A DNA stretch of 63,611 bases, counting the filler, from Welwitschia mirabilis (taxonomy: Eukaryota), in the NCBI GenBank assembly GCA_051453625.1. It is 6 parts of one record of this genome, joined end to end, with 100 filler letters (N's around TTAATTAATTAA, not from the genome) between each part and the next. Parts side by side here need not be neighbours in the genome. Positions count along the whole stretch, not along the records: positions 1 to 24,461 come from JBOZIK010000001.1; 5 more parts are not named here. The stretch is one strand, 5' to 3'. The notes under the pieces are model-generated. The model was given only the letters and a program-made list of their open reading frames with translations, searched no databases and was not told the DNA's origin. Position 1 is the first letter of the stretch; every line of letters starts with the position of its first letter. Shown one piece after another: positions 7,932 to 59,963 of the stretch. The position numbers and the translations under genes are program-made.

Positions 7932-9165
7932 TGCTGCGATGTAAATTTATGCAATCTTTAAGTCCTCAGACAAAAACCTGTAGATCACAATACTTGCAAA
8001 AACACATTCTATTATAAATAAGAGTTAACTTGAATGTCGTAATCTATTAAAGGCACTAGGTTAGAAGTTATAAAATTGATCTCATAAAGTATTTTTAATC
8101 TTTTATATTTAATAAATAATAATAAATAATAATGTAAATGTAATTCAAAATGAATGATGGTAAAAATGCAATGGATGGAATGCAAGTGAGATGGGTTCTA
8201 TATGGACTCTAATCCTTCTATCACAAGAACTATTTTTCTATAACTTAGATTAACTAGAAAGAGTTCTATTACTTGTTTCTACCCAAAATAAAAATATAGA
8301 TAATGCAATATGGAATTAGCATGAAATAGTGATGTAAAACTAAACTAATAAATTCAACCTTAATAAAGGTTACCCTTATGTTCTAAATAAATTATAGAAC
8401 TTTCACTAAACTATAATCAACTTAAACCATAAGGGACATTTACATAATTATAGTAAAAAAATTTATTTAATTAATCATAAGATTTTACATCCACTTATAA
8501 TAAAGTAGCAGCACCTCCATGAAGGATGCTTAGCCCAACATAAAGGTAAACTTCTATCTGTAGTTATTGGATGAACCTCTTATCCTTCAATCTTCTATCA
8601 TAAGAACATTAGGTACAAAAGATGGAAAATGAAGTGAAGGAAAGGAAGGATATTTATAGTTTTTCATTAATTTCTAGAAGATCAACCCTATAAATTAGAG
8701 AAGAAATCCTAGCAGTCCAAATGGGTCACATAACCCCATTACAAAAATAATTCTTTTCATCCATAGAAAATAGCTATTATTCTGACTATCATGAGGATGA
8801 TAATGGAGACATTACTTCATGTCAAAGATGGTCCATCAGCTTTAGGCCTTATAGTCAACTCCACAGACTTCATCCATGTCAATAGTATTGTTGTCCTATC
8901 TATTGTGAGGATGACAAAGGGAATGATAGGCTTCTTCATCTTCTATCTCAAAGAGGAATCAGTTTTCTACATGGTAAATTATTCTTTCAAAGTATGAAGT
9001 ATCAGAATAATCCTAAGATACCTCCAAATATAATAAGAGTTACATGTTTTAATGATAATCCTATTAGTTATCCATAATCATCAGAATTTCATCCAAATCT
9101 ATATAAATCTCCTATAAAAGAACTCAAAATACATCATCAAATTCCTACAAATTGGTATTATAGTA
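7932..9165 (-). repeat. 5' LTR of element A
   Basis: Adjacent to the PBS. The right end aligns with the LTR start at 42244 (tgttgcactacc vs tactataatacc). TATA-like CTATAAATA on the minus strand near 8650. Confidence 0.7.
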
Positions 9166-9459: not shown

Positions 9460-12400
9460 GCTAATTATCTCAAATCTTTCCCTTTTTCTCTAAAAGATGA
9501 TGCTGAGTTATGATATCATAGAAACCCTAACCATGCTTTTAGGTCATGAGGAGCCCTTAAAAATGGTTTTCTAGCTAAATTTTAACTCATGAGAATGGTT
9601 GAAGATTTAAGAAAATAAATATTAAATATTAAATATTAAATAAAGAGATAATGAAATGTTTAATGAGTTCATAGATAGGTACAACATATTGCTAGTCAAA
9701 TGTTCTAACCATGGAATCATAGTTAAGAAATGAGTTAGAGCCTTATTTAAAGAATTACAAAGTCAAACGTTGAAGAAATTAGATTTGTTATGCCAAGGAA
9801 GCATTAAACTAAGAATGTTCAAGAAGTGGAAGAAGTCATTACACAATTCTACAATATGAATCAAAGATGGGGTCAAGAAAGTAAAAATAAGAAGAAAATA
9901 AATGAAGTATGCATCCCAGAACCAGACAGTAGTGTATATAGCTCAAGAGATATTAGTCTTGTAGAAGAAGTAGTTAAAAAAGTAATAGATAGTATGGTAG
10001 AAAAATTTGATAAATCAGTTGTACAACATTTTAAAGAAGAAGAAGGACCTACATGTGAATACTATAAAAAGCATAATCATGATGAGACAGAGTACCCTTA
10101 GATGCAATAATTTGTTTAGTGATTGGATATAAATAGATTAAATTTTAATTTTGATAATCAACCTTAAACTAGAAAGAAATCATATCCTTACCAAAGTTAA
10201 AAATGGGAATGAAAAGTAGAAATACCTTTACAAAGGTATGTGAACTCAAAAAAGCAAGAGAAATCTAATTATTATAGAAAGTGAAAAAATAAAAACTCAA
10301 AAGATCAAAGAGAAAAATCAGAAATAAAAAAGAAAGAAGGAAAAATTCCTACTTAATCCTAACTAAATTCTAGAGAAGCGATAAGTAAAGTAGTAACTAC
10401 CAGATCGAGAAAACAGAAAGTGACATATGAATCATTAAAAAACAAGAACTCAAATAACTCCCTAAATAAAGGAGAGGAAGAGATTAAAAGAAAAAATATG
10501 AATGATACTTCATCAGGTTCTTTACCCCTTCCTATATATGAGAAGTAAACAAATAGAACATCCAAAAGTTTAGAAAGATATAGAATACTTAACCAGGATA
10601 TTAGAAGATACAAATATAATAATACCTCTCTTAAAATTATTAAAAGATGTACCTATGTATTGAAAGCAAATGAAGAGCATGTGCTCAAAATAGAAAAGTA
10701 AAAAGGAGAATAAGAAAGAAAAACAAATTAAAATGATAAGAAAATACCAAGTTTCTTGGGCTTCCATACAAGTTCTTCAAAATAAACAACATGAAGAGTT
10801 TAGTGATTCCAGAACATTTATGATTGATGTGAAAATAGGTAGGAAACTCAAATTTGAAGTGCTTGTATATCTTGAAGTAAGTATTAATTAATGGCCTATG
10901 AAACCTATGAGGAATTAGGAAAACCAAAACCAATGCCTTATCAAGGAAATTTTACCTAGTAAATGGCTCAGCAGTTATGAAAGAAGAAGTTTTAAAGGAT
11001 ATATCTATAGAACTCCAAGTTTTTATTTATTTAATAGACTCACTGATCATGAAAACTCAAGGAGATACCCACAAAGTAATTCTCGAAAGATCATGAATGG
11101 CTACTGTAGATGCTACTATCTAGTTTAAAAGAAGGGTAATGGAAATTAGTCTAGAGATCTTAAAAAGGAAATTAAACTTTATGATGCAGTGGTTATTGAG
11201 GAAATGATACAAAACACTAAGGAAAGAACTAATGCAATTTTAAGTCAAGAAGTTAATCTAATATTAAGTAAACAAAATGAAGAGAAGTATAAAAAAGAAT
11301 ATTTAGAAACTAAAGAAATAGAAAAACCTCTTCTTAAGAAAGGATTAGAGTATATTAAGATAACCCCTAATAGAATTTTAATCATAAATAGTTCTTTAAC
11401 TCATTCTTAGAAGAAAAGACTTAAAATAATATTAATCAAAATAAAAGGATCTTTTTCTTAGGATCATACCAATATTAAAGGAATAGATCCAAAAATTTAT
11501 CAACATAGAATCTACTTAGATACTTCTATTAAACCAAGTTGGTAGCCAGAGAAAATGTGTAACCCACATATGTAGCAGGTAATTAAATAGGAAATTTCTA
11601 AACTCATAGAAGTAGGATTTATTTTCCCCATATCTAATTCAGAATGGGTTAGCACTATAATAGTAATACCAAAGAAAGGAAATAAATAGATAGTGTGTAT
11701 AGATCTTAGAATGCTAAATACAGTGACTTATAAAAATTATTTTCCTCTTTTATTTATTGATCAAGTTTTAGAAAGAGTATATGAAAATTAGTACTATAGG
11801 TTCCTAAATGAATATATCAATTATAATCAAGTACTTATAGCCTTATAAGATCAAGTAAAAATAACTCTAACTTATTATTTGAATACGTATGCTTATAAAA
11901 TACTTCCATTTTGACTATGTAATACTCTTGCTACTTTTTAGAGATTAGTAAATAGTTTTTTTCAAGACATGATAGGAAGATAAATTAAAGTGTTTATGGA
12001 TGATTTCTTAACATTTGGCAAATATTTTGAAGATTCGATTAAAAAATTAGAAAAAGTTTTAAAAAGATTTGAAGAAAAATGCCTTAGAGTTAGCTAGTCA
12101 AAAATTCATCTTATGGTGACAAAAGGCATAGTGTTAGAACACAAAATATCTAAGAAAGAAATTGAAACTAATGAATACAAAATCAAATATATCAAAGATA
12201 TTTCAGCCCCAATCAAACTAAAAGAGTTAAGATCTTGGATATTATAGAAGATTCATATCCAACTTCAATAAAATTACTAAACCTTTGAGTAATCTTCTAT
12301 AATAAGATGTGGAACATGATTAGATTAATGAGTTTTAGAATGACTACCAAACTTTAAAAGATAAACTTTTATTAGCACTTGTTTTGCAGAAGCCAAATTT

Positions 12401-14183
12401 GACAAGACCATTCCACATTATGACGGATGCATTGAAGCACTCTATGGGAGCAGTTTTAGGACAAAAAGATGATGACAACAAACCTTATGACATTGCATAT
12501 ATAATTAAGAATTTCAGGCTAGCTCAAAAAAATTATACAAAAATAAAGAATTACTTTCGAGTAGTAGTGATAGCATTAGAAAAATTTATACATTATATAT
12601 TGGATTATGAAGTGAAAGTTTACATTGACCATAGTAACACTAGATTTTTAATAAATAAAAAAGAAGCAAACTCGAGAATTATGAGATGGATATTATTAAT
12701 GAAAGAGTTTGATTTAAAAATAATTAATAGAGAAGGAACAGAGAATGTGATAGCAGATCACCTATCAAGGTTTGAGTTTCTAGATGAAGAGCAGAGTAAA
12801 ATTAGAGATCAATTTCCAAATGAAGTAGATTAATGTTAGAGATGAATTTTCAAATGAGCATTCTTTTCAAGTATCCACAAATCCATGGTATTCTAACATT
12901 ACTAACTTTATTATAAGTAAAAGATTACCTCTTTTAAGACTTATTATTAGAGAAAAATATTATTGAGGGAATTTAGAGATTATATTTGTCATGATAAAAT
13001 GTTATTCAGAGAATGCAAGGATCTTGTCATCAGAAGATGTATAGATAAGAAATTACAGAAGGAAATTTTAAAAAAGTCTTATGAAGGAGAATAAGAAGAA
13101 CATTACAGTACAAGGAGAACAAGAGTAAAAATTCTCCATATAGGATATCATTGGCCTACCATTTTCAAAGATGCAAATAAGTATGTCCAAACTTATGATA
13201 AATGTCAGAGAGAAGGCACATTTAAGTAAAAGTTAGAAATTCCACAATAATGAATTGTTTGATGTTTGGGAAATAGATTTAGTTAGACATATTAATCCCT
13301 CATCCTTTAGGAAAAAGTACATTCTTAGCTATGTTGATTACTTCACTAAGTGGACTGAGGCTGAGGCTATAACTAATTGTTCTTCTTAAACTATAGTTAA
13401 CTTTTTCCTTAAGAATATCATGTAATGTTTTGAATCCCCCTAAAGTCTTATATCTAATAGAAAAACCCACTTTACTAGTGAAATTTTTGAGAAACTTTTA
13501 ACCGAATTCAAAATTCATCATAAACTCTCTATTGCCTATCACCCCAATCTAATGACCAAGAAAAAGTAACCAATAGAGAGCTTAATAGAATATTAAGAAA
13601 GGTTATAAATAATAAGAAAATCAATTGGGCTAATAAACTAAATGAAGCTCTATGGGCTTATAGAATAACATGGAAATACACTATAGGATTTACTCCCTAT
13701 GAGTTAGTATATGGAAAAAAAGGCTACTTTGCTAATTAAATTTGAAATAAAAACATTTAAATTAGCTAAAGAATTAAAATGTAATTTAGACATAGCTCAA
13801 AAAGAATGGATAGAGAACATGAAGTTTTTAGATGAAAATGGGAAAGAAGATATTCTGCATAAAGAACTTATACAATAAAAAAACTAAAATATATTATGAT
13901 AACAAAATTTAAAAAATAAATTTTAATATAGAAGACTTGATATTAATTTATGATCTTAAGAGAATCCATTGTAAACAAAAATATGAACAAAATTGGCTCA
14001 AACCCTATACAATAAACAAATATCCTAGGAAATGGAGCCATAAAAATATATAATCTTGATAAAAAATAACCTACCAGGTTAATGAAAAAAGAGTAAGAAT
14101 GTACTATGATCATGAATCCATATTAAATTACTTAGGAAACCCTTATATGGGGGAAAGAATACTTTCACTCTACCTTTAAATAA
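9460..14183 (+). pseudogene. gag-pol pseudogene of element B
   Basis: RT PISNSEWVS..VIPKKGNK..CIDLR and VFMDDF (~11990); RNase H ORF 12384-12833 (RPFHIMTDA..MGAVLGQKD..RIMRWILLMKEFDLKI); integrase DVWEID..VDYFTKWTEAEA, LNEALWAYR. Confidence 0.9.
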
Positions 14184-14779
14184 GCTCTAAAATTAGATAA
14201 TAAAAAGACATGTCATTTCTTTTTTCATTTCTTTAATGTTTATTTGGTTTATTAGTTTACTAAATTGTTAATGTAAATTAAGTGATTATGAAATTACAAG
14301 TTTACTTAATAAGTCTTCAATAGGAAATTATGCATCATCTTCATTATGGAGAATGAGGTAATACATTCCATTATAGAAGTACCTTCTGAGTATTTGTTTG
14401 AATGGGGAAAATAATCGTATAGGTCCTTACTCCTTTGATAGTGGTTGCACTCTTCTCATTATGGTCAATTTAAGTTGTGAAAGATAAAAGGTGGAGGAAT
14501 AGTTATGTTCTAGAAGTCATCTAAGACATAGATAGTTACTAAAGATAGAATCTCATCACAACTGAATAATTATTAAATTCTATTTAATCTAAAAAACTTT
14601 AAAATTTTAGAATTAATTTATATGAGCTTAACAATTTACTAAATTATTTAGCTTAAATTTCATTTGGTAGAATATATGTTCTTATGATAAATAAAATAGT
14701 AAAAAAATAAGTTTTAAAAAAAAAATCTTAAACTTTATTAAATAAAGTAATTTATTAAATTCTCTTACAAAAAAGGGAA

Positions 14780-15495
14780 AAAAGGCAAAAACACTCTTCA
14801 AGAAATAGGCTTCTTCAAATAACTTAATTTTTGAAACAACCAAAGAACTTATTCTTCTAGTGGAAATACCTAGTCATTGATGATAACCCTACAAATTTCT
14901 CACCTAGAGATAGAAAATGCATCTCACCTAGTAATTGAGTCAACATGTTTATTTTCTCTAGGTGGGATAGCTAGAAGTTTCGTTAAGGCTTAAAATTCCA
15001 TAGTATTCTCTCTACATTCTCCTTATTGAAGCTAAGTGTAATAAGACTTAAGATAGGGTTGATGTCTTGAAGCTGGTTAACTTTCTTTTCTAATACTTTC
15101 ATCTCTATAACTAGCTAACCTAGAGATATATTACAAGTTCACTTATCATAACTAAGCTATTGATGTAAGTCCTCAGTCCTTAGCCTTAGATACTCACCTA
15201 CTAGATGATCAACTAATGGACTAAAGCTCATAGAGATAAATTTAACCCCAAAACAGTCTATACCAGCTTCAATGATGATGGAATCTAAAGCATTTAAGAC
15301 CTTAGTAGTCAAACTATAATCATAGTATGTAAATTATTAGACTATATTTTCAGATATAATGGAAACCTGAGGAGATTAAGGATCTACAGTGCTTATGCAC
15401 ATATCTATCTACATAGTATCCAAGTTAAAAAAGCATCACTTCATCTTTTTAATAATAGAAGTAATAGTAGGAGAAGAGGGAGAAGTATAAACCAT
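14780..15495 (-). pseudogene. Degenerate antisense accessory ORF of element B (~235 codons, unknown function)
   Basis: A single frame from ATG at 15495 (MVYTSPSSP..KVLNALDSIIIEAG..EYLRLRTEDLHQ..MKVLEKKVNQLQDINPILSLITLSFNKENVERIL..SHLEKIN..) with scattered point stops. Homologous at the amino-acid level to 21960-22500. Confidence 0.65.
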
Positions 15496-16079
15496 GAAAA
15501 TTAAGGTAATAAAGGAGATGAAAAGGGGAAAAAGATTCAGTAAAGAGAATTCCTAAGCTCAGACAAAAAGTAATTAATGATCAAGTAAGGAAGGAATATA
15601 ATTTATATCCCAAACTTCATCCTCTTATCTAATAAGTGTAATTCATGTAATTTATCAAGTGTACATGTGTTTAATTTTAAGTAAATAATTGAATAAATGA
15701 TATACCTATTTTTTTAACAGCTAAAGTGTACCAAGTATCAGCATCTATCTTCAAGTAGGTTTGGAATCAAGGGATTTCAAGTTATTTAGTATTCAATGTA
15801 AAATCAGAACTTTAGATTGATTTATGATCAATTTGGATTTCCCAAGCTTCATGCCACTATAGGAATCCACCAAATATTCCTTTTGAAAAGTACATCATCA
15901 ACATTTGTTGTGAATCCTACAGATGTCTTGTAATTAAAAGAAAATTGTTTAGCCATATTTAAAACTAGAAATGATTTTCTTTTGCCTTATTTTAGAAGGA
16001 TAAAATAAGAATTACCAATGTTTTTCTCTAGTATGATGCCTTCACAAAAATTAAATTTTGAGATCAAAAAGAGATTTCT

Positions 16080-16480
16080 TGGCTGACTAATATGAACCTA
16101 AATATAAAAATTTAGGTAAGATTTCAAGCTAATTTTTTAAAACTTAAATTTTTTCCTGGGTTGTTACTAACCCAAAGTTGGAACTTTGAATTACATTTCA
16201 TATTAAAAATCATTTATCTTTCTTCAGAACCTACATTTAAATAATTATATCATGATTGACTGACACTAACTCAAAGTTGAAACTTCAAGTTGGATTTCAA
16301 GCCAATCCTAGTATTTCTTTTCATGTGATCAAAAACATAGAAGCACTTGATAGACTGACATTGACTTAAAGTTCAGACTTCAAATTATATTTTAATCCTA
16401 ACCCTCGGCTAGCAAGACCTAGTAGTTGATTGACACCAGTCTAAAGCTAAAGCTTTAGACTGGATTTGAAGCCAACTTAA
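16080..16480 (+). repeat. Five dispersed ~50-bp repeats in the accessory region of B
   Basis: Motif like gactgacactaactcaaagttgaaacttcaagttggatttcaagccaa at ~16082, 16160, 16257, 16352 and 16426. Confidence 0.65.
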
Positions 16481-17984
16481 TTCATAAACTTGCTTTTATA
16501 GAGAAGGATCTCATTCTTGATGACCCCACTCAACTTCTCTGTATAACTTTCACGTAATAACTTTTTTTTTTATTTACATGTATGTTCTTAATAATAATAT
16601 TAAAAATTTAAAGGACCTCATTAAGAACTCAAGATTTTTTAATAACCTCTTTAAAACTCTTTAGATCTCTTTAGCAATGAATTTGAGGATCCCCATGGAA
16701 AACTCTTGAGTTCTCAATAACCCTTGTCGAATCTAATGCTGTGAAGAGTAATTACAACTTAAATATGACTATGTATTTTTTATTCACCATACTTAAAGTC
16801 AATATTAGTGATTTACTCTATTATTAATGACCCTTCTTACACTATCAAATCCACATCATGTTTAGTTCAAGTCATGTCAATTACAATAGTGCTGACATCA
16901 CTAGCTCTGGCTTAGCGAAATTCTAGACTTACATCATCTAAACAAGTAATTCGATTTCATCCAGTATTAGTAGAGTATGAAAAATCTTTAGTCCATTCTA
17001 CTTTAGATTTAGTCTAGATCATAATCACTCTTCAATCACATAGAATTAATGCAATTCAAGTATGAATTTATGTCTATATTAAGTAAGTTTAAGATCTGAA
17101 ATTCTTTCTTTCCTAATCCTCTTGTATTATCATGCCTAATTGTGTCTTCTCATACTTTTTAATACATGATAAGATAACTTTACAAAAATGTTAAAAATAA
17201 ACTTCAACTTCTAATATCAGAGGTACAAGAAAGAAGACAAGAGTAACCTTAAGAGGGAAACCAAATTAAGCTACTAAGAGGAAGGTCAGCCATCACAAGG
17301 GAATCAATGGTCTTTGTCAAGATCCTCCATGATCCTTATCCAATCCTCCTTATGACGAAAGTGATTATTACTATTATAGAACTCTAAAAATCCTTTAAAG
17401 AAAATGTTCTCCACTAAGTGTTGAGCAGAAAGACTATTTGAAAAGGCTAAATATAATATCAAGGGAAATGAATGTCTATTCTGAATAATTGCAAATGACA
17501 CTTTCTGAGGAGAAAATTAATAAAGAAAGGAATGGAGTAAGTGATAAATGGATAATTTTTTTCAGAAAGATCAAAGATTTCAAGAATCAAAGAGATAAAA
17601 GCAACTGAAGTAAGCAGGTTAGATTTTCAGAAGGACTCTACTCAATAAAAGATTCTTTTACAAAATCTCATGAGTTGTGTGCAAGAAATTCACGGTCTAT
17701 GAAATATGAAGTAATCTTTGTAAGTCGAGAATACCATGATCATATTTATATAACTATTAAAATTAAGAGTGTTAATTTTGAATATGAGAAGCAAGCACAG
17801 TGAGGAAGTACTAAAATTATAACATAAGAATTTGTAGCTTTTGTTTTTTTAAGTTTCTTATACAATGAGCGTGATTCAAGGAGATCACCCTTCTAAGGAA
17901 TTTTAACCTGAATATCCATTATCTTTATCTCTTATAAATACTTTGTTTGTTAAGGAACTAAAAAAAACTTAAACTTGGGGGAAC

Positions 17985-18900: not shown

Positions 18901-18916
18901 TAACCCACTCTTCATA

Positions 18917-21900
18917 TAGGAAGATTTATTGAAATATTCATAGATGATTTTTCAACTTTTGGAAATAATTTTGGTGAGTTACTTGACATATTGAAAAGAG
19001 TCTTAAAGAGATGTAAAGAAAAACATCTAAAACTTAGATGGTTGAAAAGTCATATTATGATGATAAAAGGCATAGTACTAGAACATAAAATATTTTAAAA
19101 ATCGATTAAGAAAAATGAATAAAAAATTAAAACTATAAAGGCATTTTACTCCCAACCATGATAAAGGACTTAAGATTTTTCTTATAGCATGTTAAATATT
19201 ATAGAACATTTATATCTAACTATGGTAAAATTGATAAACCTTTAAGTAATCTTTTATAGAAGGATGTAAAATATAATTAGACAAATGAATGTCAAAGTCC
19301 TTACCAAATTTTAAAAGATAAAATTTTGTCAGCACCTATTTTACAAGGGCATAATTGGATAAGACCATTTTACATTATGATGGATGCATCTAATCATGCT
19401 ATGGAAGTATTTTTAGGGCAAAAAGATGAAAATAATAAACCATATGTTATTGCTTATTTAGTAAGAAATGAAAATCAACTCAACAAAATTACATAGTAAT
19501 TGAGAAAAAGTTGTTAGTAGTAGCAGTGGTATTATAGAAGTTTAAGCATTATATTTTAAATTACAAAGTAAAAGTTCATACAAACCAAAGTGATATTAGA
19601 TTTTTAATGAACAAAAAAGAAGCTATTTCATGAATTATAAAATGGATACTATTAATGCAAGAATTTTACTTAAAAATTATTAATAGAAGAGGGATAGAAA
19701 ATGTAGTAGTAGATCACCTCTCAAAATGGAAATGTTCTAATAAAGAGAAAATAAACATAAGAGATGAATCTCCAAACGAACATCTTTTTCAAGTAAAAAC
19801 CAATCCATGTTATGCAAATATAACCAACTTTATTATGAGTAAAAAATTACCATCTTTTATGAATTATTATGAAAGAAAAAAATTATTAAAAGAATCTAAA
19901 GACTAAATATGACATGATAAGATGTTATTTAGAAGATGTAAAGATCATTTTATTAGAATATGTGTAGAAGAAAAATTACAAAAAGATATTCTAAAGGAAG
20001 CCTATAAGGAAGAAGAGGAAGAATTATGATGCAATAATAATCAGAATAAAAATTCTCCAAAGATTCAAATGCTTATGTCTAGATTTGTGATAAGTATCAA
20101 AGAGAATGAGCATTTAACTAGATATTAGAAATGCAACAACAATGGATTCAATCAATTAAATCTTTTGATATTTGGAGCATAGATTTTGTTAAACTTATCA
20201 ATCCTTCCTCTTATAAATAAAGATATATTTTAATGTATATTGATTACTTTACTAAATGGGTTGAGGCTGAGGTTGTATCTTATTTTTCTTTCAAAATCAT
20301 AGTTAATGTTTTACTTAGGAATATTATCTATTATTTTAAATCCCCTTAAAGTCTTATATCTGATAAAGGAAGTTGTTTTAGTAGTGAAGTATTCAAGAAA
20401 CTCTTCATCAAACATGAAATCCACTACAAATTTTCTATTGTCTATCATCTTTATTTAATAACTAGGCTAAAGTAACTAATAGAGAATTCAATAGAATGCT
20501 AATAAAGGTCATAAATAGTAAGAAAACAAATTAGGCTAAAAAATTAAATGAAGCTTTATGGGCTTACAGAATAACTTGAAACTATAGTATAGTGTTTACA
20601 ACATATGAATTAGTTTATGAAAAAAGAGCTATTTTGTTAATTGAACTTAGAATAAAAATGTTTAAATTCACTAAATCACTAAAGTGTAATATGGAAATAT
20701 CTCAAGTAGAATAAATATAAAATATGAATATTTTACATGAAAACAAAAAAATAAAATCTCTTTTTTATAAAGAACTTAAACAACAAAAACCTAAAATATA
20801 TCATGATAATAAAATTATAAAGACTAATTTTAATATAGAATATTTTGTATTAATATATGATCCTAAAAGATTCATTTAAAATAGAAATATGAATATAAGT
20901 AGCTAGAACCCTATAACATAATAAAAATATTGGGAAATAAAGCCATAGAGTTATATGATCTTGATGAAAAAGTAACCTACCACATTAATGAAAAGAGAAT
21001 AAGAATGTATCATGATCATAAATCTATGCTATATTATTTATGAAACCCTTATAGGATGGAAAGAATGCTTTCACTCTACTTATAAAATAAATGTTTTTAG
21101 ACTAGATAATAAGGGATATGTCATTTTGTTAAAGTTTATTTAAACTATTAATTCACTAAATTGTTTAAAGTAAATTTAATGATTGTGAAACAAGAAGCTA
21201 ACTTGTAAGTATTCAACATGAGATTGTGCATTATCCTCATTAAGAGAATTAAGAAAACACATTTCATCAGATGGTAGAATATCCTTTGATTAAGGAAAAA
21301 AGACAAAAAACCATAATATTCTACTAAAAATGTACTAGGTAAATTATTCCTAAGAGACGCCTTTGGTAGTACAATATGGCAACTATAAGAGCTTCATTAA
21401 CAGGATTAGTTAGTCATGATCTAGATAAAAAATAAAAAGAAAGGAATCTTATGATTTCTTACTCCTTTAATAATGCTTGCACTCTCTCATTGTGGTTAAG
21501 AAATTAAGTTGAAAAAAATAAAAATTTAAGAAAGAGTTATGTCCTATGAGCCATCTAAGACACAACTAGTTACCAAGATTACAACAATATATTGCAACTT
21601 ACAAAAAAAAAAAAAAGAAAGGAAAAAAAAAAAAGAATTTTATTCTAGAATGAAATGTGAATCTAAATATTTTGAATTTAGTAGGATACACAATTATTAG
21701 ATTCTATTTTAGTAAAGAGTAAACTTCCTAGTTTAAAAATCATTTCATGTTATCTTAGCAATTTGATAAATTGCTTAGTATGTATTCCTTTTAATGAAAT
21801 TGATATGGCCAGAAGAAAATAAAAGTAGTTATAAGATAACCTTATTTAAAATAAAATAACAATTAGAAACTTTATTAGATAAGGAATATATTATTTTATT

Positions 21901-22517
21901 TTATAGAAAAAGAATAAAATCATTGCTCACGCTACTGAAGCTAAAAAATAGATAACTTAGCTAAAGAAACTTAATTCTTGAAGTATCTAGAGAACTTGTT
22001 CTTTTTGTTAGAACATCTAGTTTTAGATGATAATTCTATAGAGCTTTTGACTAGGGGTAGTAAAGACATTTCACTTGGAAACTTTAATAACCTATTAATC
22101 TCTTCTAGGTGAGCTTGCCAAAAATTCTTATAAGGCTTGGCATTTTGCATTGTCTTCTCTATATTATTCCTATTAAAACTTAGTGTAGTAAGACTAAGTA
22201 TAGGATTTATGCCTTAAAGCTAATCAACTCTTTTTTCTAACACCTACATCCATCCAGCTTACTAGCCTAATGAAACATTATAAGCTAATTTTACTTGGTT
22301 AAGTTATCAATGATGTTCTTTTATCTTAACCCTTAAATACTTAGCCGAGTGATGAATTATAGGATCAAAACATAGAGGAATGATTTCATTTTTTAAATTT
22401 TCTCTATCAGCCTCAGTATCCATGATATCTACGATCTTAGCAATTGATTATAACTATAATATAATATTTTCTGCTTATCATTCTTTAACCCTAATAAAAT
22501 ATAACACAATTGGGATT
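18917..22517 (+). mobile_element. Gypsy element C (same family as B): RT C-terminal half, RNase H, integrase, conserved module, antisense ORF; truncated at both ends
   Basis: Collinear similarity to ~11970-15370 (IFIDDF, HIMMDASNHAM, ORF 19655 QEFYLKIINRRGIENVVVDHLS, LNEALWAYRIT). Confidence 0.85.
21960..22500 (-). pseudogene. Second copy of the antisense accessory ORF, 5'-truncated by an LTR insertion
   Basis: Minus strand reads ..DTEADRENLKNEIIS..CFDPIIHHSAKYLRVKIKEHH..YNVSLG..VLEKRVD*L*GINPILSLTTLSFNRNNIER..KPYKNFWQAHLEEIN. Confidence 0.6.
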
Positions 22518-23487
22518 TGTTACAGTGTGTATTTATGCAACATTTATCTTCTAAGTAGAATCCTATTAATCACAAGTAATAATGCATAATCACAACACAC
22601 TAATAGAAATGAAAGTGCTCTGAATATCATAATCCATTAAAGGCCAATGTAGGAAATAAGAGAGTTTCTTTCAAAAGTAAAACACTTATACCCTAATCTA
22701 CAAAAATAACTTACAATGCATGAAAGTAAAATAAAACACACTTGTGCAAAGCTAATCTAAGAAAAGAAAATAATAATGCACTTAACCTAAACTAACTAAA
22801 CACAAGCTTGATGAAGGTTACCCTCATAACCTATATCACTAGAGGAACTATCACTAAATATAAAGTAACATATGCTATGAGGAAGAGAAACATTTACATA
22901 TTGAAAGCATAAAAGGAAATGTTTTGTATTAATAATTGAACCACATTCATGTTATAAAGTGGTTGTACCTTAATGGTGAAAATATCATCCAACACTAAGG
23001 AAACATCTTTCTAGAACTACAGAATGAATCTCTGACCCTTTAATCTCTTATCATGAGAATTTTCGATGCAAATAAAGACAAGTAGGAGTTGAGGATGAGG
23101 TCTCTATTTATTAACTCAAATACACAACAACAAAGATAGAAAGATGTGGGTAAACCATAATGGATACACAAAGAAAAAATAGAAATACAAGTGGTAGATG
23201 TTTGGTGAATGTTCAGTATAGACGTTATAATAGTGTTGTCTAGCTAATCATCTAGATGATAGAGCAGATGATGCCACCTCATAATTAATCTACATCAGCT
23301 GCCAGATAGACTTTAGTTAGCATCTAGTTGGTATAGTCATTCATTTAGTCATCCGGATAATAAGGTGAATGATGGCCTTTAATAGTTCTTCATTTATTGC
23401 ATTAGCCTTAATATTTATAAAAAGTTATATTTAAAAATACAAAGTATTTATATTTGTTAAAAATGTTGTAAATTATCATGGAGATTG
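22518..23487 (-). repeat. Athila-like LTR (E family) inserted into element C; other end in gap
   Basis: Begins tgttacagtgtgtatttatgca and aligns along its length with 41004-42120 (e.g. caaataaagacaagtaggagttga, gatgatgccacctcataa, cattagcct). Confidence 0.8.
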
Positions 23488-23689: not shown

Positions 23690-24505
23690 TGTTAGATTAG
23701 ATTTACTAATTGATGTCAAACTAATTTCTCTTGTATAGTGCAAAAATGTTATATCTTGTATGCAGATGAGATTGAGTTTTACAAATTAAAGAATTAGACC
23801 AAAATGCATAAAAAAAACTGCTGAGTTATGTTAACCTTCAGGGGGGGTTTACTAAATCCTAAAGGGGTTAACCACACCTGAAGTAGTCATAATAAAAATG
23901 AATTAAACCCAGAGGGGTTGACCGAATTCTGAAGGGGTTGACTAGACTTATGATCTTAACAGCTAGTATTCCTAAATCAAATGGAAAGGGGTTGACTAGA
24001 TTTTCATGGGGTTAACCAAATTTGAGGAACTAACAAGCAAATAGTCCTAGACTGAGAGGAAAGGATTTAACTAAATTTTCATGGGCTCTACTGGACTTGA
24101 GAAGCTAACAGTCCATAGTTCCAGACCAAAAGGTAAGGGGTTGACTGAACCTAGGATGGAGTCGATCTAGCTCTTATGGGGTTAACTGGATTTTTATGGG
24201 ATTGACTAGATGACATGGAAAAATAAAATTTGTAAATGTTATGTATCCATTGCCTAGTCATTACCTAGCCATTTTCTAGCCATTTATAGTCGTTGGAGAT
24301 GCAATTCATTTGTAATAAATCCTAGTAACCCTCCATTATAAATAACTATGCTATTGATGATTTAGAAATCTTTTGGCACTATTCTAATTTAGCATAATCA
24401 TTGTGGATCTGAAAGATTAAATTTTATTTTCATTGGTATATCATTGTATTTTTTCACATCTNNNNNNNNNNNNNNNNNNNNNNNNNNNNNNNNNNNNNNN
24501 NNNNN

Positions 24506-24517
24506 TTAATTAATTAA
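24506..24517. other. Artificial contig linker TTAATTAATTAA (also 33068-33079, 50855-50866, 56864-56875, 59908-59919)
   Basis: Identical 12-mer centred in 100-bp N spacers; gives stops in all six frames. Confidence 0.95.
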
Positions 24518-24561
24518 NNNNNNNNNNNNNNNNNNNNNNNNNNNNNNNNNNNNNNNNNNNN

Positions 24562-27468
24562 ACAATGGAAGAGCAAAAATAGAAGGCATTGGAAGCATTG
24601 GTGGAGGTAACCTTCCTAGAATTAATGAAGTTTTATATATAAGTGGTTTGAAGTACAATTTATTGAGGATTAGTCAAATTTGTGATAAAGGTTACAAAGT
24701 AGTTTTTAATAAATCAAAATGTAAAATTGTGCATGAAAAACTGAACGATGTGATTCTTAGAGCTAGTAGAATAGATAATGTGTATAGCATAGTCCAATCA
24801 TTTTCTCCTCATTATTTCTCGAATGTTCCTTAATATGATTCATGGAATAAACATTTAAGACATGTTAATTATGATCAATTAAAAATGATTATTCATAAAA
24901 ATATTGTTAGAAGAATTCATAAGATAAACATAAAAAAACAAGGGTTGTGTAATGTGTGTTAAAAGGGAAAATAAATTAGAATCTCTCATAAGAGTAAAAC
25001 TCATATTTCCACTTTAATGCCATTAGAACTTATTCATATGTATTTACTTAGACCTGCTTAAACTTGTAGTCTAGGTGGAAAATGTTATTTTCTTACAATG
25101 GTTGATGACTACTCTAGATATACTTAGATATCCTTTTTATCCAACAAGTCTAAAGCTTATAAGCATTGGGTTAAAATTTTCAATAAGATCCAAAATGAAA
25201 AGGGTTACACTATAAAGAGAATAAGAAGTGATCACAGTGGTGAATTTAAAAACCATTTCTTTGAAAAGTATTGCATTGAAAATGGTATTGATCTTTAATT
25301 TTCAGCTTCAGAGATACCATAACAAAATGGTATATCTAAAAGAAAGGACAGAGTTTTCAAGAAATGGCTCAAACTATACTAAATGATAAATAACTACTAA
25401 ATCTTTTTGGGTTAAAGCAATTAGCATAACATGTTATATTATAAATAGAGTTTATCTTAAATCAAGTATTGAAAAAACACCTTATGAGCTATGGAATGGA
25501 AGACAACCAAATTTGTCATACTTTAAGATGTTTGAAATTAAATGATATGTCCTAAAAGATAGAGAACATTTGAGTAAATTTCACTCAAAATCTGATGAAG
25601 CTATCTTTTTAAGATATTCAACAAGAAGTAAAACCTACCATGTTTTCAACAACAGAAGATTAACTGTAAAAGAGTCAATAAATGTGCAAACTAATAAGAT
25701 TGACCTAAAAGTAAGCAACTCAGATGAAGAAGAAATCATAACCCCAAGTATTCCCATTTCAAATAAAGGTGTTACTAAAATAAATAAAGGTCAAGTAAAA
25801 GAAGGAACATTGAAAAAGCCTAAAATTCTAAAAGATCATCTGTTATAATCCATCATTAGAGAAGTTAACTCAAGAGCAAAAATAAGAGGTTCAATGAAAA
25901 ATTTATGTGTTCATGTCTACTATGTTTTAAAAATAAAACTCAAAAACTTTGAAGAAGTAGAAAATCATGAAGATTAGATGTTAGCAATGTAGGATGAGCT
26001 ACAATAGTTTAAGATAAATAATGTTTGGAAACTAGTAGAGAGACTAGAAAATAAGAATTTTTTTGGTACAAAATGGATCTTTAAGAACAAATGTAATGAA
26101 TAAAACTATGTTATCATAAATAAAGTAAGACTTGTAGCTCAAGGTTTTAACCAAATTAAAGGAATTGATGTAGAAGATACTTTTGCTCGTATTGCAAGAT
26201 TAGATAGCATTAGAATGTTTTTATCTTTTACAGCTTTTAAGAACTTCAAAGTTTATCAAATGGATGTAAAAAGTGCATTTCTGAATGGATCATTAAATGA
26301 AGAAGTTTATGTTGAATAATCTCAAGGTTTTATTGATCCGTATAGATTTGATCATGTGTACAGACTTAAAAAAGCTTTATATACATTAAAACAAGCACCA
26401 AGAGCATGGTATGAAAAGTTAGCTATCTTTTTAAATAAAAATAGATATGATCATGGAATGGTAAATAAAACTTTATTTATAAATAAGTTGAAAGATGATT
26501 TTATTATTATACAAATTTATATAGATGATATTATTTTTGGTGCCTCAAATGAAAATTTGTCAAAAAAATTCGCAAACATTATGATAAATCCATTTCAAAT
26601 GAGTATGCTTGATGAAGTTAAAATATTTCTTGGACTTTAGATAAAGTAAACTAATGATGGAATATTTATCTCTTAATTTAAATATGCAAGAGATTCAATC
26701 AAATGTTTTGATTTAGAAAATAAAAACATAGTTGATACTCCTATGTCTATTTCATGCAAAATAAGCCTAAATGAAAATAGTAAATTAGTAGATCAAAAAC
26801 TTTACAAAAGCATGATTAGTAGTTTATTATACTTAACCACAAGTAGATTAGATATTATATTTAGTATTGGAGTTTGTGTAAGATATTAATTTAATCCAAA
26901 AGAATCACATTTTCAAGTAGTAAAAAGGATAATTAGGTATATAAAAGGCATATGTAATTATGGTTTATAATATCTAAATGAAATATCTTTCGATCTTGCA
27001 GGCTTTAGTGATGTAGATCAGGCAGGATGCAAAGATGATAGAAATAGAACAAGTGGAAATTATTTCCTTCTAGATTCATGTCTAGTTAGATGGGCAAGTA
27101 AGAAATAAAACTCTATTTCTCTTTCTAATGTAGAAGCTGAATATATTACTATAGAAAGTTATTACACTCACCTCTTATGGATGAAAGAAATGTTAAGAGA
27201 TTTTGATATGTCTTTTGAATAAGTTCCTATTTTTTGTGATAATACCAATGCTATTAATATATCTAAAAATTTAGTTCAGCATTCAAAAATAAAGAATATT
27301 AAACTTAAACATCATTTTCTTTGTGATCAAGTTGAAAAAGATAATATATTTTATGAATTTTATTTCTATAGATTAACAATTAGCAAATATCTTTATTAAA
27401 ACCCTGAATTTTGATACTTTTATTCATCTCAGATATAAATTGGGTTTCTCTTACTATTCTATCATTAA
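24562..27468 (+). pseudogene. Copia pol pseudogene (pre-integrase, integrase, RT, RNase H)
   Basis: GLKYNLLRISQICDKG; RIRSDHSGEF; SKFHSKSDEAIFLRYSTRSK; YRLKKALYTLKQAPRAWYE..QIYIDDIIFGA; GFSDVD..CKDDRNRTSG. Confidence 0.92.
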
Positions 27469-33022: not shown

Positions 33023-35734
33023 TNNNNNNNNNNNNNNNNNNNNNNNNNNNNNNNNNNNNNNNNNNNNTTAATTAATTAANNNNNNNNNNNNNNNNNNNNN
33101 NNNNNNNNNNNNNNNNNNNNNNNATTTATATTTCAATTTAGTAATTTATTAGGTTTGCCACTTGCATTTCATGTGATCTTGACGGTTACCACATTGATTA
33201 TTATTTTGCAACAAACTTGGCCTACACTTTGCATTTCATGTGATCTAAGTAATTACCACATTTATTTAGTATATCTTACTCCTTACACCTTTAAGTAATC
33301 CTGTAGATTAATGCCACTTTGATAGGGTAATGGTAAATAGCAATAAAGGCAAATACACTTATGAAAGATGTTTTTTTGATGAAGCAATCAAAGAAGATTT
33401 GGTGGACTTCAATTAAAGAATTTAAGGTGAGAAAGAAAAATTTATTTATTTAATTAAGTAAGATAATTATTCTATATTTACTATTTCTTATTTGCATACT
33501 CTAAAATCTTTAAAAATTTTTGAAAATTAATTAAGTTCTACTAAAAATCCTGCCTCTCCTCTTTTACCTAATCATCTTAATACTCTACCTCTATGGCATC
33601 TGATAAATATTCACTCAAAGTATCAGGATCCTTTAATTCACATGCCACTTTAAAGAATATTTTAGCTAACGAAAAGAGGGAAATTCAAAACCCATTTAAC
33701 CTATTCCTCAGAAATGATGTAGAGTAAAATAACTTAAATGCCTATCCTACCTTTTTTGAAGAACCTAATAAAGACCCATTCCAACACATAGCCGAGATTG
33801 AATAACTCATCCTTACTTTAAGAAATGAAAAAAATGAAATTTCAGATAGAACCTACATAATAATATTTCCATTTACCTGAAAAGAAAAAGTGAAATTTTG
33901 GCTTAAAACCTTTCCATGTAGAAGTCTTAAGTCATGGAACCAAGTATAAAAAGTCTTTATCAAATGATTCATGAATGATATAGTTATGAGGATAAGAAAA
34001 ATAGAGGGAATCAATTTCTAATAATACCCTCATGAAGATTACTCAACATATAAAATATTTTTAATAGCTATATCATTTAACTTATTAAATGAGTTTGCAA
34101 AAGAAGAACTTATTGATCACTTCTATAGTTGATTAAATAGTCAAACCAAACAAATGTTATATTTTTCATGTGATGGAAATTTGCTTAATTTAAACTTAGA
34201 TGATTCTTAGAACATATTATAAGACCTTGTAAAAAGAAGTTAAAATTTTCCAAAAACTACATGTAAAGATACTAGAATTATTGGTGAAATACTTAGAGAT
34301 TTGAAAAAAGTACAATATGAGAAATAATAACCAAATGTTAACATCCTACTTATTGATATTACTAGTACATTAGACAGTTATACAAAAGCTTTAACTAATG
34401 CAAAATTACTAAATCAACTTTACCATTATGAAATATATGATGAAAACTCTCATTCTACCAAGGAATGCCTAAGTTTACCAACTTGTAAAGGGGCCCTATT
34501 CAATGAATTTTAATCAAAGGCCAAATAACTTTGGAGGCAATCAANNNNNNNNNNNNNNNNNNNNNNNNNNNNNNNNNNNNNNNNNNNNNNNNNNNNNNNN
34601 NNNNNNNNNNNNNNNNNNNNNNNNNNNNNNNNNNNNNNNNNNNNNNNNNNNNNNNNNNNNNNNNNNNNNNNNNNNNNNNNNNNNNNNNNNNNNNNNNNNN
34701 NNNNNNNNNNNNNNNNNNNNNNNNNNNNNNNNNNNNNCAACATATAAAAGGATTTTGATAGTCATGTCATTCAACCGAGTAAATAGGTTTACAAAAGAAT
34801 AACTTATTGATCACTTTTATAGTAGATTGAATAGTCAAATAAAACAAATGGTAGATTTTTCATGTGGTGGAAATTTACTCAATTTAAACATAGATAATGC
34901 TTGAAAGTTATTATAAGATCTTATAGAAAGAAGCAAAAATTGGCTAAACTACACATAAAGACACTAGAATTGTAGGTGAAATGCTTAAAGATTTGAAAAA
35001 AGTATAATATAAGAAAGAACAACCAAAGGTTAACACCCTACTTAGTGATCTTACCAGTATATTTGAGAGTTATACAAAAGCTGTAATTGATGCAAACTTG
35101 CTAAATCAACTTAATCATTGTAAAATATGTGATGAAAACTCTCATTCTATCAAGAAACGCCTAGCTTTACCAACTTGTAGAGAGGCTATATTCAATAAAG
35201 TTTATGCATTCAATCAAATGCCAAATAACTTTGGAGCCAACCAATAATACCCACCATAAAATAATGGACCTTCAACATCTTTTAAACCATTCTTTAATAA
35301 CAAATATGGAAGCCATAACTCTTAGCATAATTTTTCCAACTATGACAGAAGTCATCCTTGTAGAAAAATAATGAAAGAACTCAAAAAGATGCAAGATACC
35401 ACCAATGAAATTTTATAAAATCAAAATAAAAACCTAGAAAATTTGATTAGCTTCCTTCAACAAAACATGCTAGGAAATTAAAGGTCATAGATATCACTTG
35501 TTGCCTAAACTATTCCAAACCTAAATGATGTGAAGAAAGATTGGAAAGTAGTTACATGATGTGAACATCATACTACTCTCCATGCTAAACCCTTAATTTC
35601 TTTCCACAAAGACAAAGAAGTACATTAATAAAATTATGTTGAAATTCTTAATCAACCAAACCTTCCTCCTACTCTCAACTCTAAATTCAACAATAACAAC
35701 CAACATCTAAAGAAGAATACTACCCCTTCCCATG

Positions 35735-40159: not shown

Positions 40160-41003
40160 TTTTGACACTATTCCTAGGAGAGACTTTAAGAGAAAAGGAA
40201 GATCATCATTACTCAAGTAAATATTTTTAATTCATTTTAAATTATTTATTTGAGTAGTATTGTACTTTATCCTTTTGGATCTACTTACAATTTCTTGATT
40301 ATCTTTTAGTCTATAAGAAATTATTTAATTATCCATTTGAAATGTACTTTAATCTTTTTTCTTGTAAATTGTAATTTTTATTTCTTGTAGTTTTTCTTTC
40401 TTTCCTTTAAAGTGTAATTTTAATTTGAAGGATTTATGTTTCAATTTAGAAATTTATTAGCTCTACTCCTAGCACTTTGTGTGATCTAAGGGATTACTCC
40501 ATTGATTATTATTTCTCAACAAACTTGGCCTACACTTTGTGCTTTATTCGATCTGAGTGATTTCTAAATTTATTTGATATATCTTACTATTTACACCTTT
40601 GAGTGATTCTAGAGATTAATGCTACTGGAATGTAAAGAAGTTTGTTTAACACAATTTAATCTTACAAGGTAATGATAAATAGCAACAAAGGAAAATACAC
40701 TCATAAAAGACATTTCCTTGACAAAGTAATTAAAGAAGGTCTGGTGGACTTTAATTCAAAAACTCAAGGTGAGAAAGAAAATTTTTTTTCTTTAATTAAG
40801 TAAGATGATTATTCTACATTTACTATTTTTTATTCACATACTCCAAAATCTTTGAAAATTTCTAAAAATCAACCAAGTTATACTAAAAATATTGCCTCTC
40901 CTCTTTTGCCTAATCACCCTAATACTCTTACCTCTATGACCTCTAACAAATCTTCATTTAAAATATTAGGATTCCCTAATTTAAATGTTACTTTATAGGA
41001 TAT
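40160..41003 (+). mobile_element. Element D2: PBS, 5' UTR and gag start, interrupted by element E
   Basis: 40470-41003 aligns with 33165-33660 (caacaaacttggcctacactttg, aaggtgagaaagaaaa, gcctctcctctttt). Confidence 0.8.
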
Positions 41004-42244
41004 TGTTACTTTATGTATTTATACAAATGATTACACTCTTAAGAACATCTTGTCATTTACAAATAAATATAAATTTTGCATAATACAATATACTAATATA
41101 GATGGGAGTAATCCAAATGTCATATTATTGTTGAAGGCATAGGAGAAAAGAGTGAGAATTAATTTTAAGAATGACTTAATAGCAGAAATTAATAATAATG
41201 TAGAAAATGATAATACAAACACACTTATAAAAATGAATGTAAATCTAAGTAAGTGCAACTTCCATCCGATTACTAAATTATCCTATCATAGAGATCAATC
41301 CTATATAATCTAGATTAATTAAGAAATGTTGTCACTAGATCGAGATCAACCTAAGCTATCAGGTATATCAAATAGATATAAAACTATGTAAAGTTAATCT
41401 AGGAAAGAATATAATGCGCCTAAACTAATAATGCTCAACCTTAACAAAGGTTATCCTCATAATTTATATTACTAAATAAGATATCATGGAATCAAAAGCA
41501 ACATAAACTATAAGGGATATATACATAATAAGTAGCCACATCTCAATGGAAGATGCATAGCCCAACGTCCGTGTTACAAAGAAGTTACATCTCAATGGAG
41601 GATGCATAGCCCAAGACTAAGGAAGACATCTCTCTGAAATTACAATGGATGAATCTCTGGTTCTTTGATCTCCTATCATGAGAATTTTTGGTGCAAACAA
41701 AGACAAGTAGGAGTTGAAGATGAAGTAAATATTTATTAACTAAGATAGACTCACAAACAAATAAGACAAACAAGCATAGGCACAACTCTAATAACCATGC
41801 AAGAAACACAGAAACAAATGGTTAAAGTTAAGTGAAGTTTGATGAAGCATTATTTTAGATGTCATCCTACTAGTCATTCGAATGATACAAGAGATGATGC
41901 CACCTCATAAGAATTCCATATCATCTACTAGATTGACTCTAATCAACATCCTTATTGGCTTAACTATTTTATCGTCCATTCAATTGTTCAAACGATGAGG
42001 TGGATAATATGATTTTTACAACTTTTCATGTAATGCATTAGCCTAAATGCTTACAAGAATTTTACTTTAAAATAGGAAATATTGTAAATTGCTTCAAATG
42101 CTATAAAATGTAATGAAGATTACATGTTTTTGTATCATTCATCTTAGCTCTTTATTACCCTATAAATCTAGCATAAACCTATCTAATAACCTACAAAAAT
42201 ACTCAAAATACCCTATCAAATACACCCAAGTTGGTAGTGCAACA
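41004..42244 (-). repeat. 3' LTR of element E
   Basis: TG..CA termini (tgttac..gcaaca), adjacent PPT, similarity to 51810-52051 and 22518-23487. Confidence 0.85.
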
Positions 42245-56819: not shown

Positions 56820-56919
56820 NNNNNNNNNNNNNNNNNNNNNNNNNNNNNNNNNNNNNNNNNNNNTTAATTAATTAANNNNNNNNNNNNNNNNNNNNNNNNN
56901 NNNNNNNNNNNNNNNNNNN

Positions 56920-59863: not shown

Positions 59864-59963
59864 NNNNNNNNNNNNNNNNNNNNNNNNNNNNNNNNNNNNN
59901 NNNNNNNTTAATTAATTAANNNNNNNNNNNNNNNNNNNNNNNNNNNNNNNNNNNNNNNNNNNN

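Follow-up and report, generated by a model that had tools for sequence, protein, structure and literature searches.

The locus described here raises the question of whether a decayed Ty3/gypsy retrotransposon of Welwitschia mirabilis once carried a third gene, located downstream of pol and encoded on the opposite strand. To our knowledge, antisense extra ORFs are common in plant LTR retrotransposons, and a function has been established for none of them. The sequence examined is a window of 63,611 nt, by which we mean the whole stretch of DNA analysed, composed of six parts of one record of assembly GCA_051453625.1. The parts are joined by filler, in each case paired 44-N runs with 12 bases between them (24462-24561, 33024-33123, 50811-50910, 56820-56919 and 59864-59963). 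Two copies of the element, termed B and C, both lie inside window positions 1-24,461, which correspond to JBOZIK010000001.1. An initial annotation of this DNA had proposed that minus-strand frames of the two copies align as protein and that they are the remains of a formerly selected accessory protein.

The window consists of a patchwork of old repeats and has a GC content of 24-32% (stretches with long N runs excluded); a tRNA scan and an Rfam scan of it gave no match. Under the standard code, the longest open frame in the window has at most 164 codons, N runs aside. LTR retrotransposons are bounded by a pair of long terminal repeats, and the pol gene of Ty3/gypsy elements encodes reverse transcriptase, RNase H and integrase in that order. 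The pol features recognized in the two copies are as follows.

11882-12115, plus strand: reverse transcriptase of copy B (RVT_1, partial; Pfam E 6e-06)
12399-12710, plus strand: gypsy-type RNase H of copy B (RT_RNaseH, RT_RNaseH_2; E 9e-24 for RT_RNaseH)
13041-13211, plus strand: integrase zinc-binding domain of copy B (Integrase_H2C2; E 3e-08)
13261-13545, plus strand: integrase catalytic core of copy B (rve; E 2e-13)
18916-21267, plus strand: pol of copy C, from the C-terminal part of the reverse transcriptase to the integrase end, collinear with 11972-14371 of copy B at 71.5% nucleotide identity

All domains of copy B are on the plus strand and follow the gypsy order of reverse transcriptase, RNase H and integrase, with the pol frame extending to about 14110. 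Homology between the copies continues beyond pol, reaching 15137 in B and 22284 in C at 65.6% identity under more sensitive settings, and about 15300/22440 in a MAFFT alignment. Both B and C derive from a plant Ty3/gypsy retrotransposon and are long dead and diverged. They stand in tandem and in the same orientation (B 11972-15300, C 18916-22440) at a constant offset of 6.9 kb, an arrangement that could be a remnant of an old tandem array or could be due to chance. Their divergence amounts to 28-35%, with some purifying selection on pol since the split. Upstream of the reverse transcriptase of B, the stretch 9526-10654 (plus strand) gives the top codon-usage score found outside the training set of the model used below (20.0). 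This stretch is presumably gag/protease, and none of its frames matched a Pfam family.

The antisense frame itself lies beyond the end of pol in both copies. [quoted passage not shown]

14824-15279, minus strand: antisense ORF remnant of copy B, 151 codons plus the shared TAA
21971-22423, minus strand: antisense ORF remnant of copy C, with ATG at 22423-22421, 150 codons and TAA at 21973-21971
15280-15435, minus strand: upstream continuation of the B frame, outside the shared ORF and with no counterpart in C
14824-14826 (21971-21973 in C), minus strand: TAA common to B and C, directly after a conserved FKN, where similarity stops
14734-14756, minus strand: two AATAAA hexamers of copy B, possible poly(A) signals, 68 and 85 nt past the stop
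22489-23480, plus strand: repeat X, an LTR candidate that begins about 66 nt beyond the ATG of C
15469-15535, plus (pol) strand: two purine-rich runs, polypurine-tract candidates, just past the 5' end of the B antisense frame

The extent of the shared frame is narrower than first described. The initial annotation had placed it at 14780-15495 and 21960-22500; the frame is indeed shared, but only over 15279-14824 in B and 22423-21971 in C. Similarity starts at the ATG of C, a position at which B has ATC. Comparison of B 15279-14827 with C 22432-21974 on the minus strand gives 45% protein identity (tblastn E 2e-29), and the three peptide pairs originally quoted in support of the alignment are all present, with the correction that C reads NNIEK and not NNIER. 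Within an ungapped core of 127 codons (B 15207-14827, C 22354-21974), 61 of the 127 residues are identical. Of the codons, 35 are the same in both copies, 26 show synonymous differences and 66 non-synonymous ones. The synonymous pairs cited earlier (AAC/AAT, ATC/ATA, TTA/CTT, CTT/CTA, AGC/AGT and TTC/TTT) were all found again.

Over the approximately 450 nt of the ORF alignment, gaps are in-frame only, and in the AT-rich flank past the stop the gaps measure 11, 1, 8, 2 and 3 nt. Because protein similarity ends at the shared TAA, this codon is likely the natural stop of the ORF. Its position is on the minus strand, about 700 nt beyond the end of pol, and the collinearity of the two copies extends from the reverse transcriptase to the ORF. 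Copy C, like copy B, has two minus-strand AATAAA hexamers beyond this point, in this case 71 and 95 nt past the stop (21871-21900), and one AATAAA hexamer is within a conserved TAATAAAGTTT block. In AT-rich DNA such hexamers often arise by chance. Both of the two copies of the element carry the ORF, and a tblastn search of the window revealed no third copy, the next best match having an E value of 0.23.

The 3' boundary of the element is only loosely defined. No LTR pair was found in the window for copy B or copy C. Three matches to a 12-base primer-binding-site motif were obtained where 2.7 are expected, which is chance level. Repeat X, the LTR candidate adjacent to the ORF of C, also occurs at 7940-8641, on the 5' side of B, and at 40974-42115, with about 66% identity between copies. 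The sequence downstream of B (15440-16500) matches no copy of repeat X, and a truncation or interruption of copy B near 15300-15550 is possible.

The ORF stretch is repeated in the genome, since contigs of one DNA sequencing run that are at least 90% alike cover it at a summed depth of 480-680, versus about 4-7 for single pieces, where contig depth does not represent a copy count. There were no RNA runs among the listed carriers of the stretch. Three RNA runs labelled as the same species (approximately a quarter of each, strandedness unstated) gave zero depth over 14608-15543 and 21628-22095, and a trace of 0.1 was present in one of the three in bin 22096-22563, which holds the 5' part of the ORF of C. 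The 14-kb stretch received 21 RNA reads, every one of which fits only in part. The B and C copies of the ORF are now silent pseudogenes.

A separate feature of this region is a motif of 42-44 nt within the spacer that separates pol from the ORF (14422-14465), which recurs on the minus strand at 522-563 and 59360-59401, inside two other repeats. The bin that holds this motif has a DNA-contig depth of 14449, the second highest among the 30 bins of the stretch. It also receives most of the few RNA reads, and these continue into unrelated sequence.

Neither copy of the ORF is open, and any claim that it once encoded a protein must account for its stop codons. Copy B has six internal stops (four TAG, one TAA and one TGA) and copy C has seven (three TAG, three TAA and one TGA). 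These 13 stops fall at 11 positions, two of which are common to both copies. At four positions the codon in the other copy is consistent with origin of the stop by a single transition: the pairs are CAG/TAG, CAA/TAA and TGG/TAG, together with CAA/TGA, which fits a CGA ancestor whose CpG was struck on either strand. At five of the 11 positions, getting from the codon in the other copy to the stop takes two steps or a transversion.

The base composition of the whole window provides the background for these changes. The ratio C/(C+T) is 0.04-0.065 at CG, 0.16 at CAG/CTG, 0.21 at CCG and 0.30-0.40 at CHH, where CAT is the least depleted context at 0.40, and the CpG odds are 0.16. This hierarchy of CG > CHG > CHH is the signature of plant methylation and deamination, and it accounts for the 27% GC of the transposon graveyard that the window represents. 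It follows from the same context table that changes from Gln to stop are frequent and those from His to Tyr are rare. Decay of the RIP type was also considered and ruled out: (CpA+TpG)/(ApC+GpT) is 1.30, and CpA is not depleted.

A very different account of the stops is that the host reads TAA and TAG as glutamine (NCBI table 6), in which case the frames would be near-intact rather than decayed. Long transposon frames in the window are open under this code, including dead frames of 200-620 codons whose standard-code stops are nearly all transitions from CAA, CAG and TGG. The clearest example is a copia pol at 24564-27445 (plus strand), with 22 TAA/TAG versus one TGA in 965 codons. TAA or TAG occupies 11 of 25 conserved glutamine columns of copia, and none of 13 conserved histidine columns has a tyrosine codon. 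In the pol of B and C, five in-frame TAA/TAG positions are shared, versus one mixed C/T pair. The rarity of TGA is explained by the fact that transitions yield this codon from CGA and TGG only. Moreover, in columns conserved among ten angiosperm copia references, C>T or G>A changes affect alanine at 12 of 26 positions, threonine at 8 of 18, proline at 7 of 14, glycine at 18 of 42 and arginine at 12 of 30, so that the change from Gln to stop (11 of 20) is no commoner than the 40-50% seen at these other residues. Three of 12 invariant tryptophans of the copia pol are TAG or TAA, and the plant context signature (CG 0.04-0.065, CAG/CTG 0.16, CAT 0.40) predicts the pattern at glutamine and histidine. 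Along 97% of its sequence the copia pol also shares about 50% identity with copia proteins of angiosperms, and the similarity between the antisense ORFs ends at a shared TAA. We regard a reassigned code as extremely improbable. The in-frame stops are decay and not recoding, and the host uses the standard code. The earlier explanation of the stops by loss of CAA, CAG and TGG codons holds, as transition decay with the context signature of plant methylation.

These observations have a practical consequence for the study of dead plant transposons. Transition-only decay is a trap for genetic-code inference, in that it leaves near-open frames under a ciliate code, and it depresses naive dN/dS in every frame. 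Both signals need calibration before they are believed. Since transition decay puts wrong frames at 0.5-0.9, the other frames and pol served as the reference for the NG ratios of the antisense ORF.

In the ungapped core of 381 nt, pN/pS is 0.39 for the antisense frame, the lowest of the six, and 0.50-0.85 for the others. Column shuffling, which is a lenient null, yielded a best-of-six value as low as 0.39 in none of 2000 trials (mean minimum 0.56, 5th percentile 0.48). The corresponding NG86 w is 0.18-0.22 in the antisense frame versus 0.38-0.69 in the other frames. True pol frames from the same pair of copies have pN/pS of 0.22-0.46 and w of 0.24-0.33; the substitution pattern of the antisense frame is like that of pol in the same two copies.

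It is also conceivable that the region never coded for protein. It could be an untranslated segment between pol and the LTR, perhaps with a cis-acting or antisense-RNA role, in which the apparent frame signal results from chance and mutation bias. Wrong frames are already brought to pN/pS of 0.5-0.85 through transition decay. Furthermore, among 25 ungapped runs of at least 150 nt taken from repeat pairs of the window, the minimum pN/pS ranges over 0.22-0.59, and two runs of unassigned status reach 0.35-0.36. Differences by codon position are distributed 37/39/60 in the core and 51/47/70 over 152 codons (chi-square p about 0.07), so that periodicity alone is only suggestive. The summed split for the first four pol blocks is 80/79/125. 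In favour of a coding frame, transversions, which deamination does not produce, are likewise concentrated at third positions, with a distribution of 12/12/22 in the core.

Codon usage was scored as a log-likelihood trained on decayed pol frames, a procedure that ranked the true frame first in five of five cross-tests, one of them by 1.4 units. By this score the antisense frame outranks the other five in each copy, with -4.2 against -12.4 for the runner-up in B and +6.0 against -8.3 in C, and this rank holds under all three training sets. In absolute terms the score of B is unremarkable, with 70% of windows outside the training set scoring higher, and that of C falls in the top 13% of such windows. 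As in pol, GC1 is higher than GC2 in the antisense frame. Stops are also fewest of the six in this frame, at 8 per copy versus 10-22.

Besides the ordinary codon score of B, a noncoding origin would be consistent with the lack of homologues (described below), with the lack of RNA beyond the 0.1 trace in the C bin, and with a stop density of about 7 per 150 codons, versus an estimated 12.6 or so expected from base composition. It does not readily explain why the same frame is best on four separate measures in both copies, why gaps are in-frame only with a shared TAA at the edge of similarity, or why no shuffle in 2000 is as low and the signal equals that of pol. We therefore judge it unlikely that this sequence was always untranslated.

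Another possibility is that the sense strand was the coding one, with an env-like or other ORF of which the antisense frame is the shadow. The sense frame that shares third positions with the antisense frame does rank second, with pN/pS of 0.50, w of 0.38-0.40 and amino-acid identity of 0.43-0.44, and tblastx assigns it 100 bits versus 114 for the antisense frame. However, this frame has 10 stops per copy, of which four in each are TGA, and the codon-usage scores of all sense frames are worse in both copies (-15 to -25). Of 54 single-site changes that leave the antisense product the same, 17 alter this frame, and 45 and 52 are non-synonymous in the other two sense frames. No sense frame has a Pfam match. 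A sense-strand gene is thus very improbable. The statement in the initial annotation that some antisense-silent differences are non-synonymous in the sense shadow was borne out by the same 17 changes, as was the superiority of the antisense frame over the sense frames, which is evident in pN/pS, codon usage and stop count. The comparison of dN/dS between antisense and shadow frames that it had recommended gives 0.39 versus 0.50 as pN/pS.

Overall, these results favour the view that the antisense frame once coded for protein; its signal is about equal in strength to the signal of pol, in a comparison of two broken copies only. The strength of past selection is moderate rather than strong, because transition-only decay alone gives wrong-frame pN/pS values of 0.5-0.8. 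The view that the ORF encoded a formerly selected accessory protein is thereby upheld as regards past selection, but at this moderate level.

The predicted product of the ORF resembles nothing in the collections searched. With stops read as X, neither copy matched any Pfam family at E values up to 10, Transposase_28 included. An earlier reading of B (E up to 0.01) and all frames of 13600-16480 (E up to 1) likewise gave no Pfam match. Decay reduces the sensitivity of such searches, yet in copy B the rve and RNase H domains are decayed to the same degree and are still recognized at 2e-13 and 9e-24. Transposase_28, or another domain with a good model, would probably have been detected. A word-indexed protein search with the two-copy alignment examined 563 candidates of 92-356 amino acids, none of which reached an E value of 10 or below, and the best match in a PDB profile search had E 0.24. 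The AlphaFold2 prediction from the two-row alignment has a pLDDT of 35.4 and a pTM of 0.23, and the helices it draws carry no weight. The helical or coiled-coil character suggested in the initial annotation is therefore conjectural. That the ORF contains no recognizable domain, as stated at the outset, is in agreement with the results from Pfam, from 1.84 billion representative proteins and from the PDB.

The HMMER search of the 1.84 billion representative proteins produced two matches (E 9e-08 and 4e-05), which we take to be spurious. Each is scattered over 8-10 stretches in proteins of repetitive sequence, to which many unrelated Pfam families 'match' as well.

The homology searches bear on a further alternative, in which part of a host gene or of another mobile element was captured in reverse orientation and carried passively by the ancestor of B and C. 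Capture is discussed as an origin of such ORFs in the available portion of one survey (PMC7264820), and homology between B and C does stop near the 5' end of the ORF. Against this reading, HMMER returned only the two spurious matches among 1.84 billion representatives, and Pfam and PDB returned nothing. In addition, the substitution pattern suggests that selection persisted after B and C split. Passive capture is accordingly a quite improbable origin.

The ORF is probably a once-selected antisense accessory ORF, a sequence-orphan example of an already known type. We place somewhat better than even confidence in the reading as a whole, which is that B and C are dead gypsy copies with an ancestral antisense third gene that has decayed by deamination. 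According to this model, the ancestral element would have had a third gene of approximately 150 codons, encoding a protein of about 17 kDa, on the strand opposite to pol and about 700 nt beyond its end. Transcription would have begun at a promoter close to the 3' end of the element and run inward, with termination possibly at the AATAAA signals that follow the stop by 70-95 nt. By analogy, the small protein might have modulated the life cycle of the element itself, in line with the role put forward for Grande gene23 and the Retand antisense ORFs, in which it could have acted through nuclear or nucleic-acid-binding regulation. After the death of the copies, methylation-driven C>T and G>A deamination would have converted CAA, CAG and TGG codons to TAA and TAG.

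Several plant elements with a comparable arrangement have been described. The accessible sections of one survey (PMC7264820) report antisense ORFs between pol and the 3' LTR in Grande, RIRE2, Retand and PvRetro13, and its examples of the class termed aORF-3R are maize Grande gene23, rice RIRE2, Silene Retand and Phaseolus PvRetro13. As the same sections describe, no function has been assigned to aORF-3R, the products are nuclear in some cases, and in Grande a separate promoter is present (PMC7264820). The initial annotation had named Retand/Tat elements as carriers of antisense extra ORFs, and these sections and the available part of a study of Retand (PMC7264820, PMC11963269) document such ORFs between pol and the 3' LTR as frequent in plant gypsy families. 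Within what these sources describe, the ORF of B and C is like aORF-3R in being downstream of pol, on the opposite strand, present in more than one copy and without clear protein similarity.

Differences from Retand are also apparent, as far as the available part of that study extends. It reports that 97% of Retand clusters carry antisense ORFs with a Transposase_28 domain and that the region from pol to the 3' LTR spans 2,933-6,566 bp (PMC11963269). The ORF described here is much shorter than the ORFs of at least 600 bp in that survey, the two being compared by description. Likewise, the spacer between pol and the ORF is only about 0.7 kb, and the post-pol region measures about 1.2-1.4 kb, from the end of pol at about 14110 to the end of homology at about 15300 or the purine runs at 15469-15535, versus the 2.9-6.6 kb reported for Retand. 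TRP28/Transposase_28 (PF04195) of Retand has the same position and orientation in the described elements, whereas the ORF of B and C has no Pfam match.

The organization of pol provides a second point of comparison. In Tat lineages of flowering plants (Retand, Ogre), the gypsy RNase H is followed directly by an RNase H of archaeal type, as described in the accessible text of PMC4408406. Unlike those lineages, the element described here yielded only RT_RNaseH/RT_RNaseH_2 and no second RNase H. In copy B, about 110 codons separate the end of RNase H (12710) from the integrase zinc domain (13041), which is a short space. The three frames of 12846-13300 gave only Integrase_H2C2 in a search for a second RNase H, where decay could mask a weak domain. 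The integrase of B produced one weak match to longer proteins and no lineage assignment.

Neither a second RNase H nor Transposase_28 was found, and assignment of the element to Tat/Retand, the group mentioned in the initial annotation, is not supported. It is conceivable, although on balance doubtful, that the ORF is a relic of an undescribed family of small antisense accessory proteins in a gypsy lineage outside Tat/Retand, of which younger copies are possibly intact and expressed elsewhere in this large genome. If this were true, antisense accessory genes would be a general feature of plant gypsy elements that extends beyond a peculiarity of the Tat lineage. A sequence-unrelated example in an element without Tat hallmarks would suggest a repeated origin of such genes, and it would offer a short, tractable protein with which to test if these ORFs regulate transposition.

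Retroviral antisense genes of the HTLV HBZ type, which are expressed from the 3' LTR, offer an analogy of layout only, in line with the comparison drawn in the available sections of PMC7264820. Judged from its sequence features, membership of the element in Tat/Retand is not supported, and in its layout it resembles the Grande, RIRE2, Retand and PvRetro13 families.
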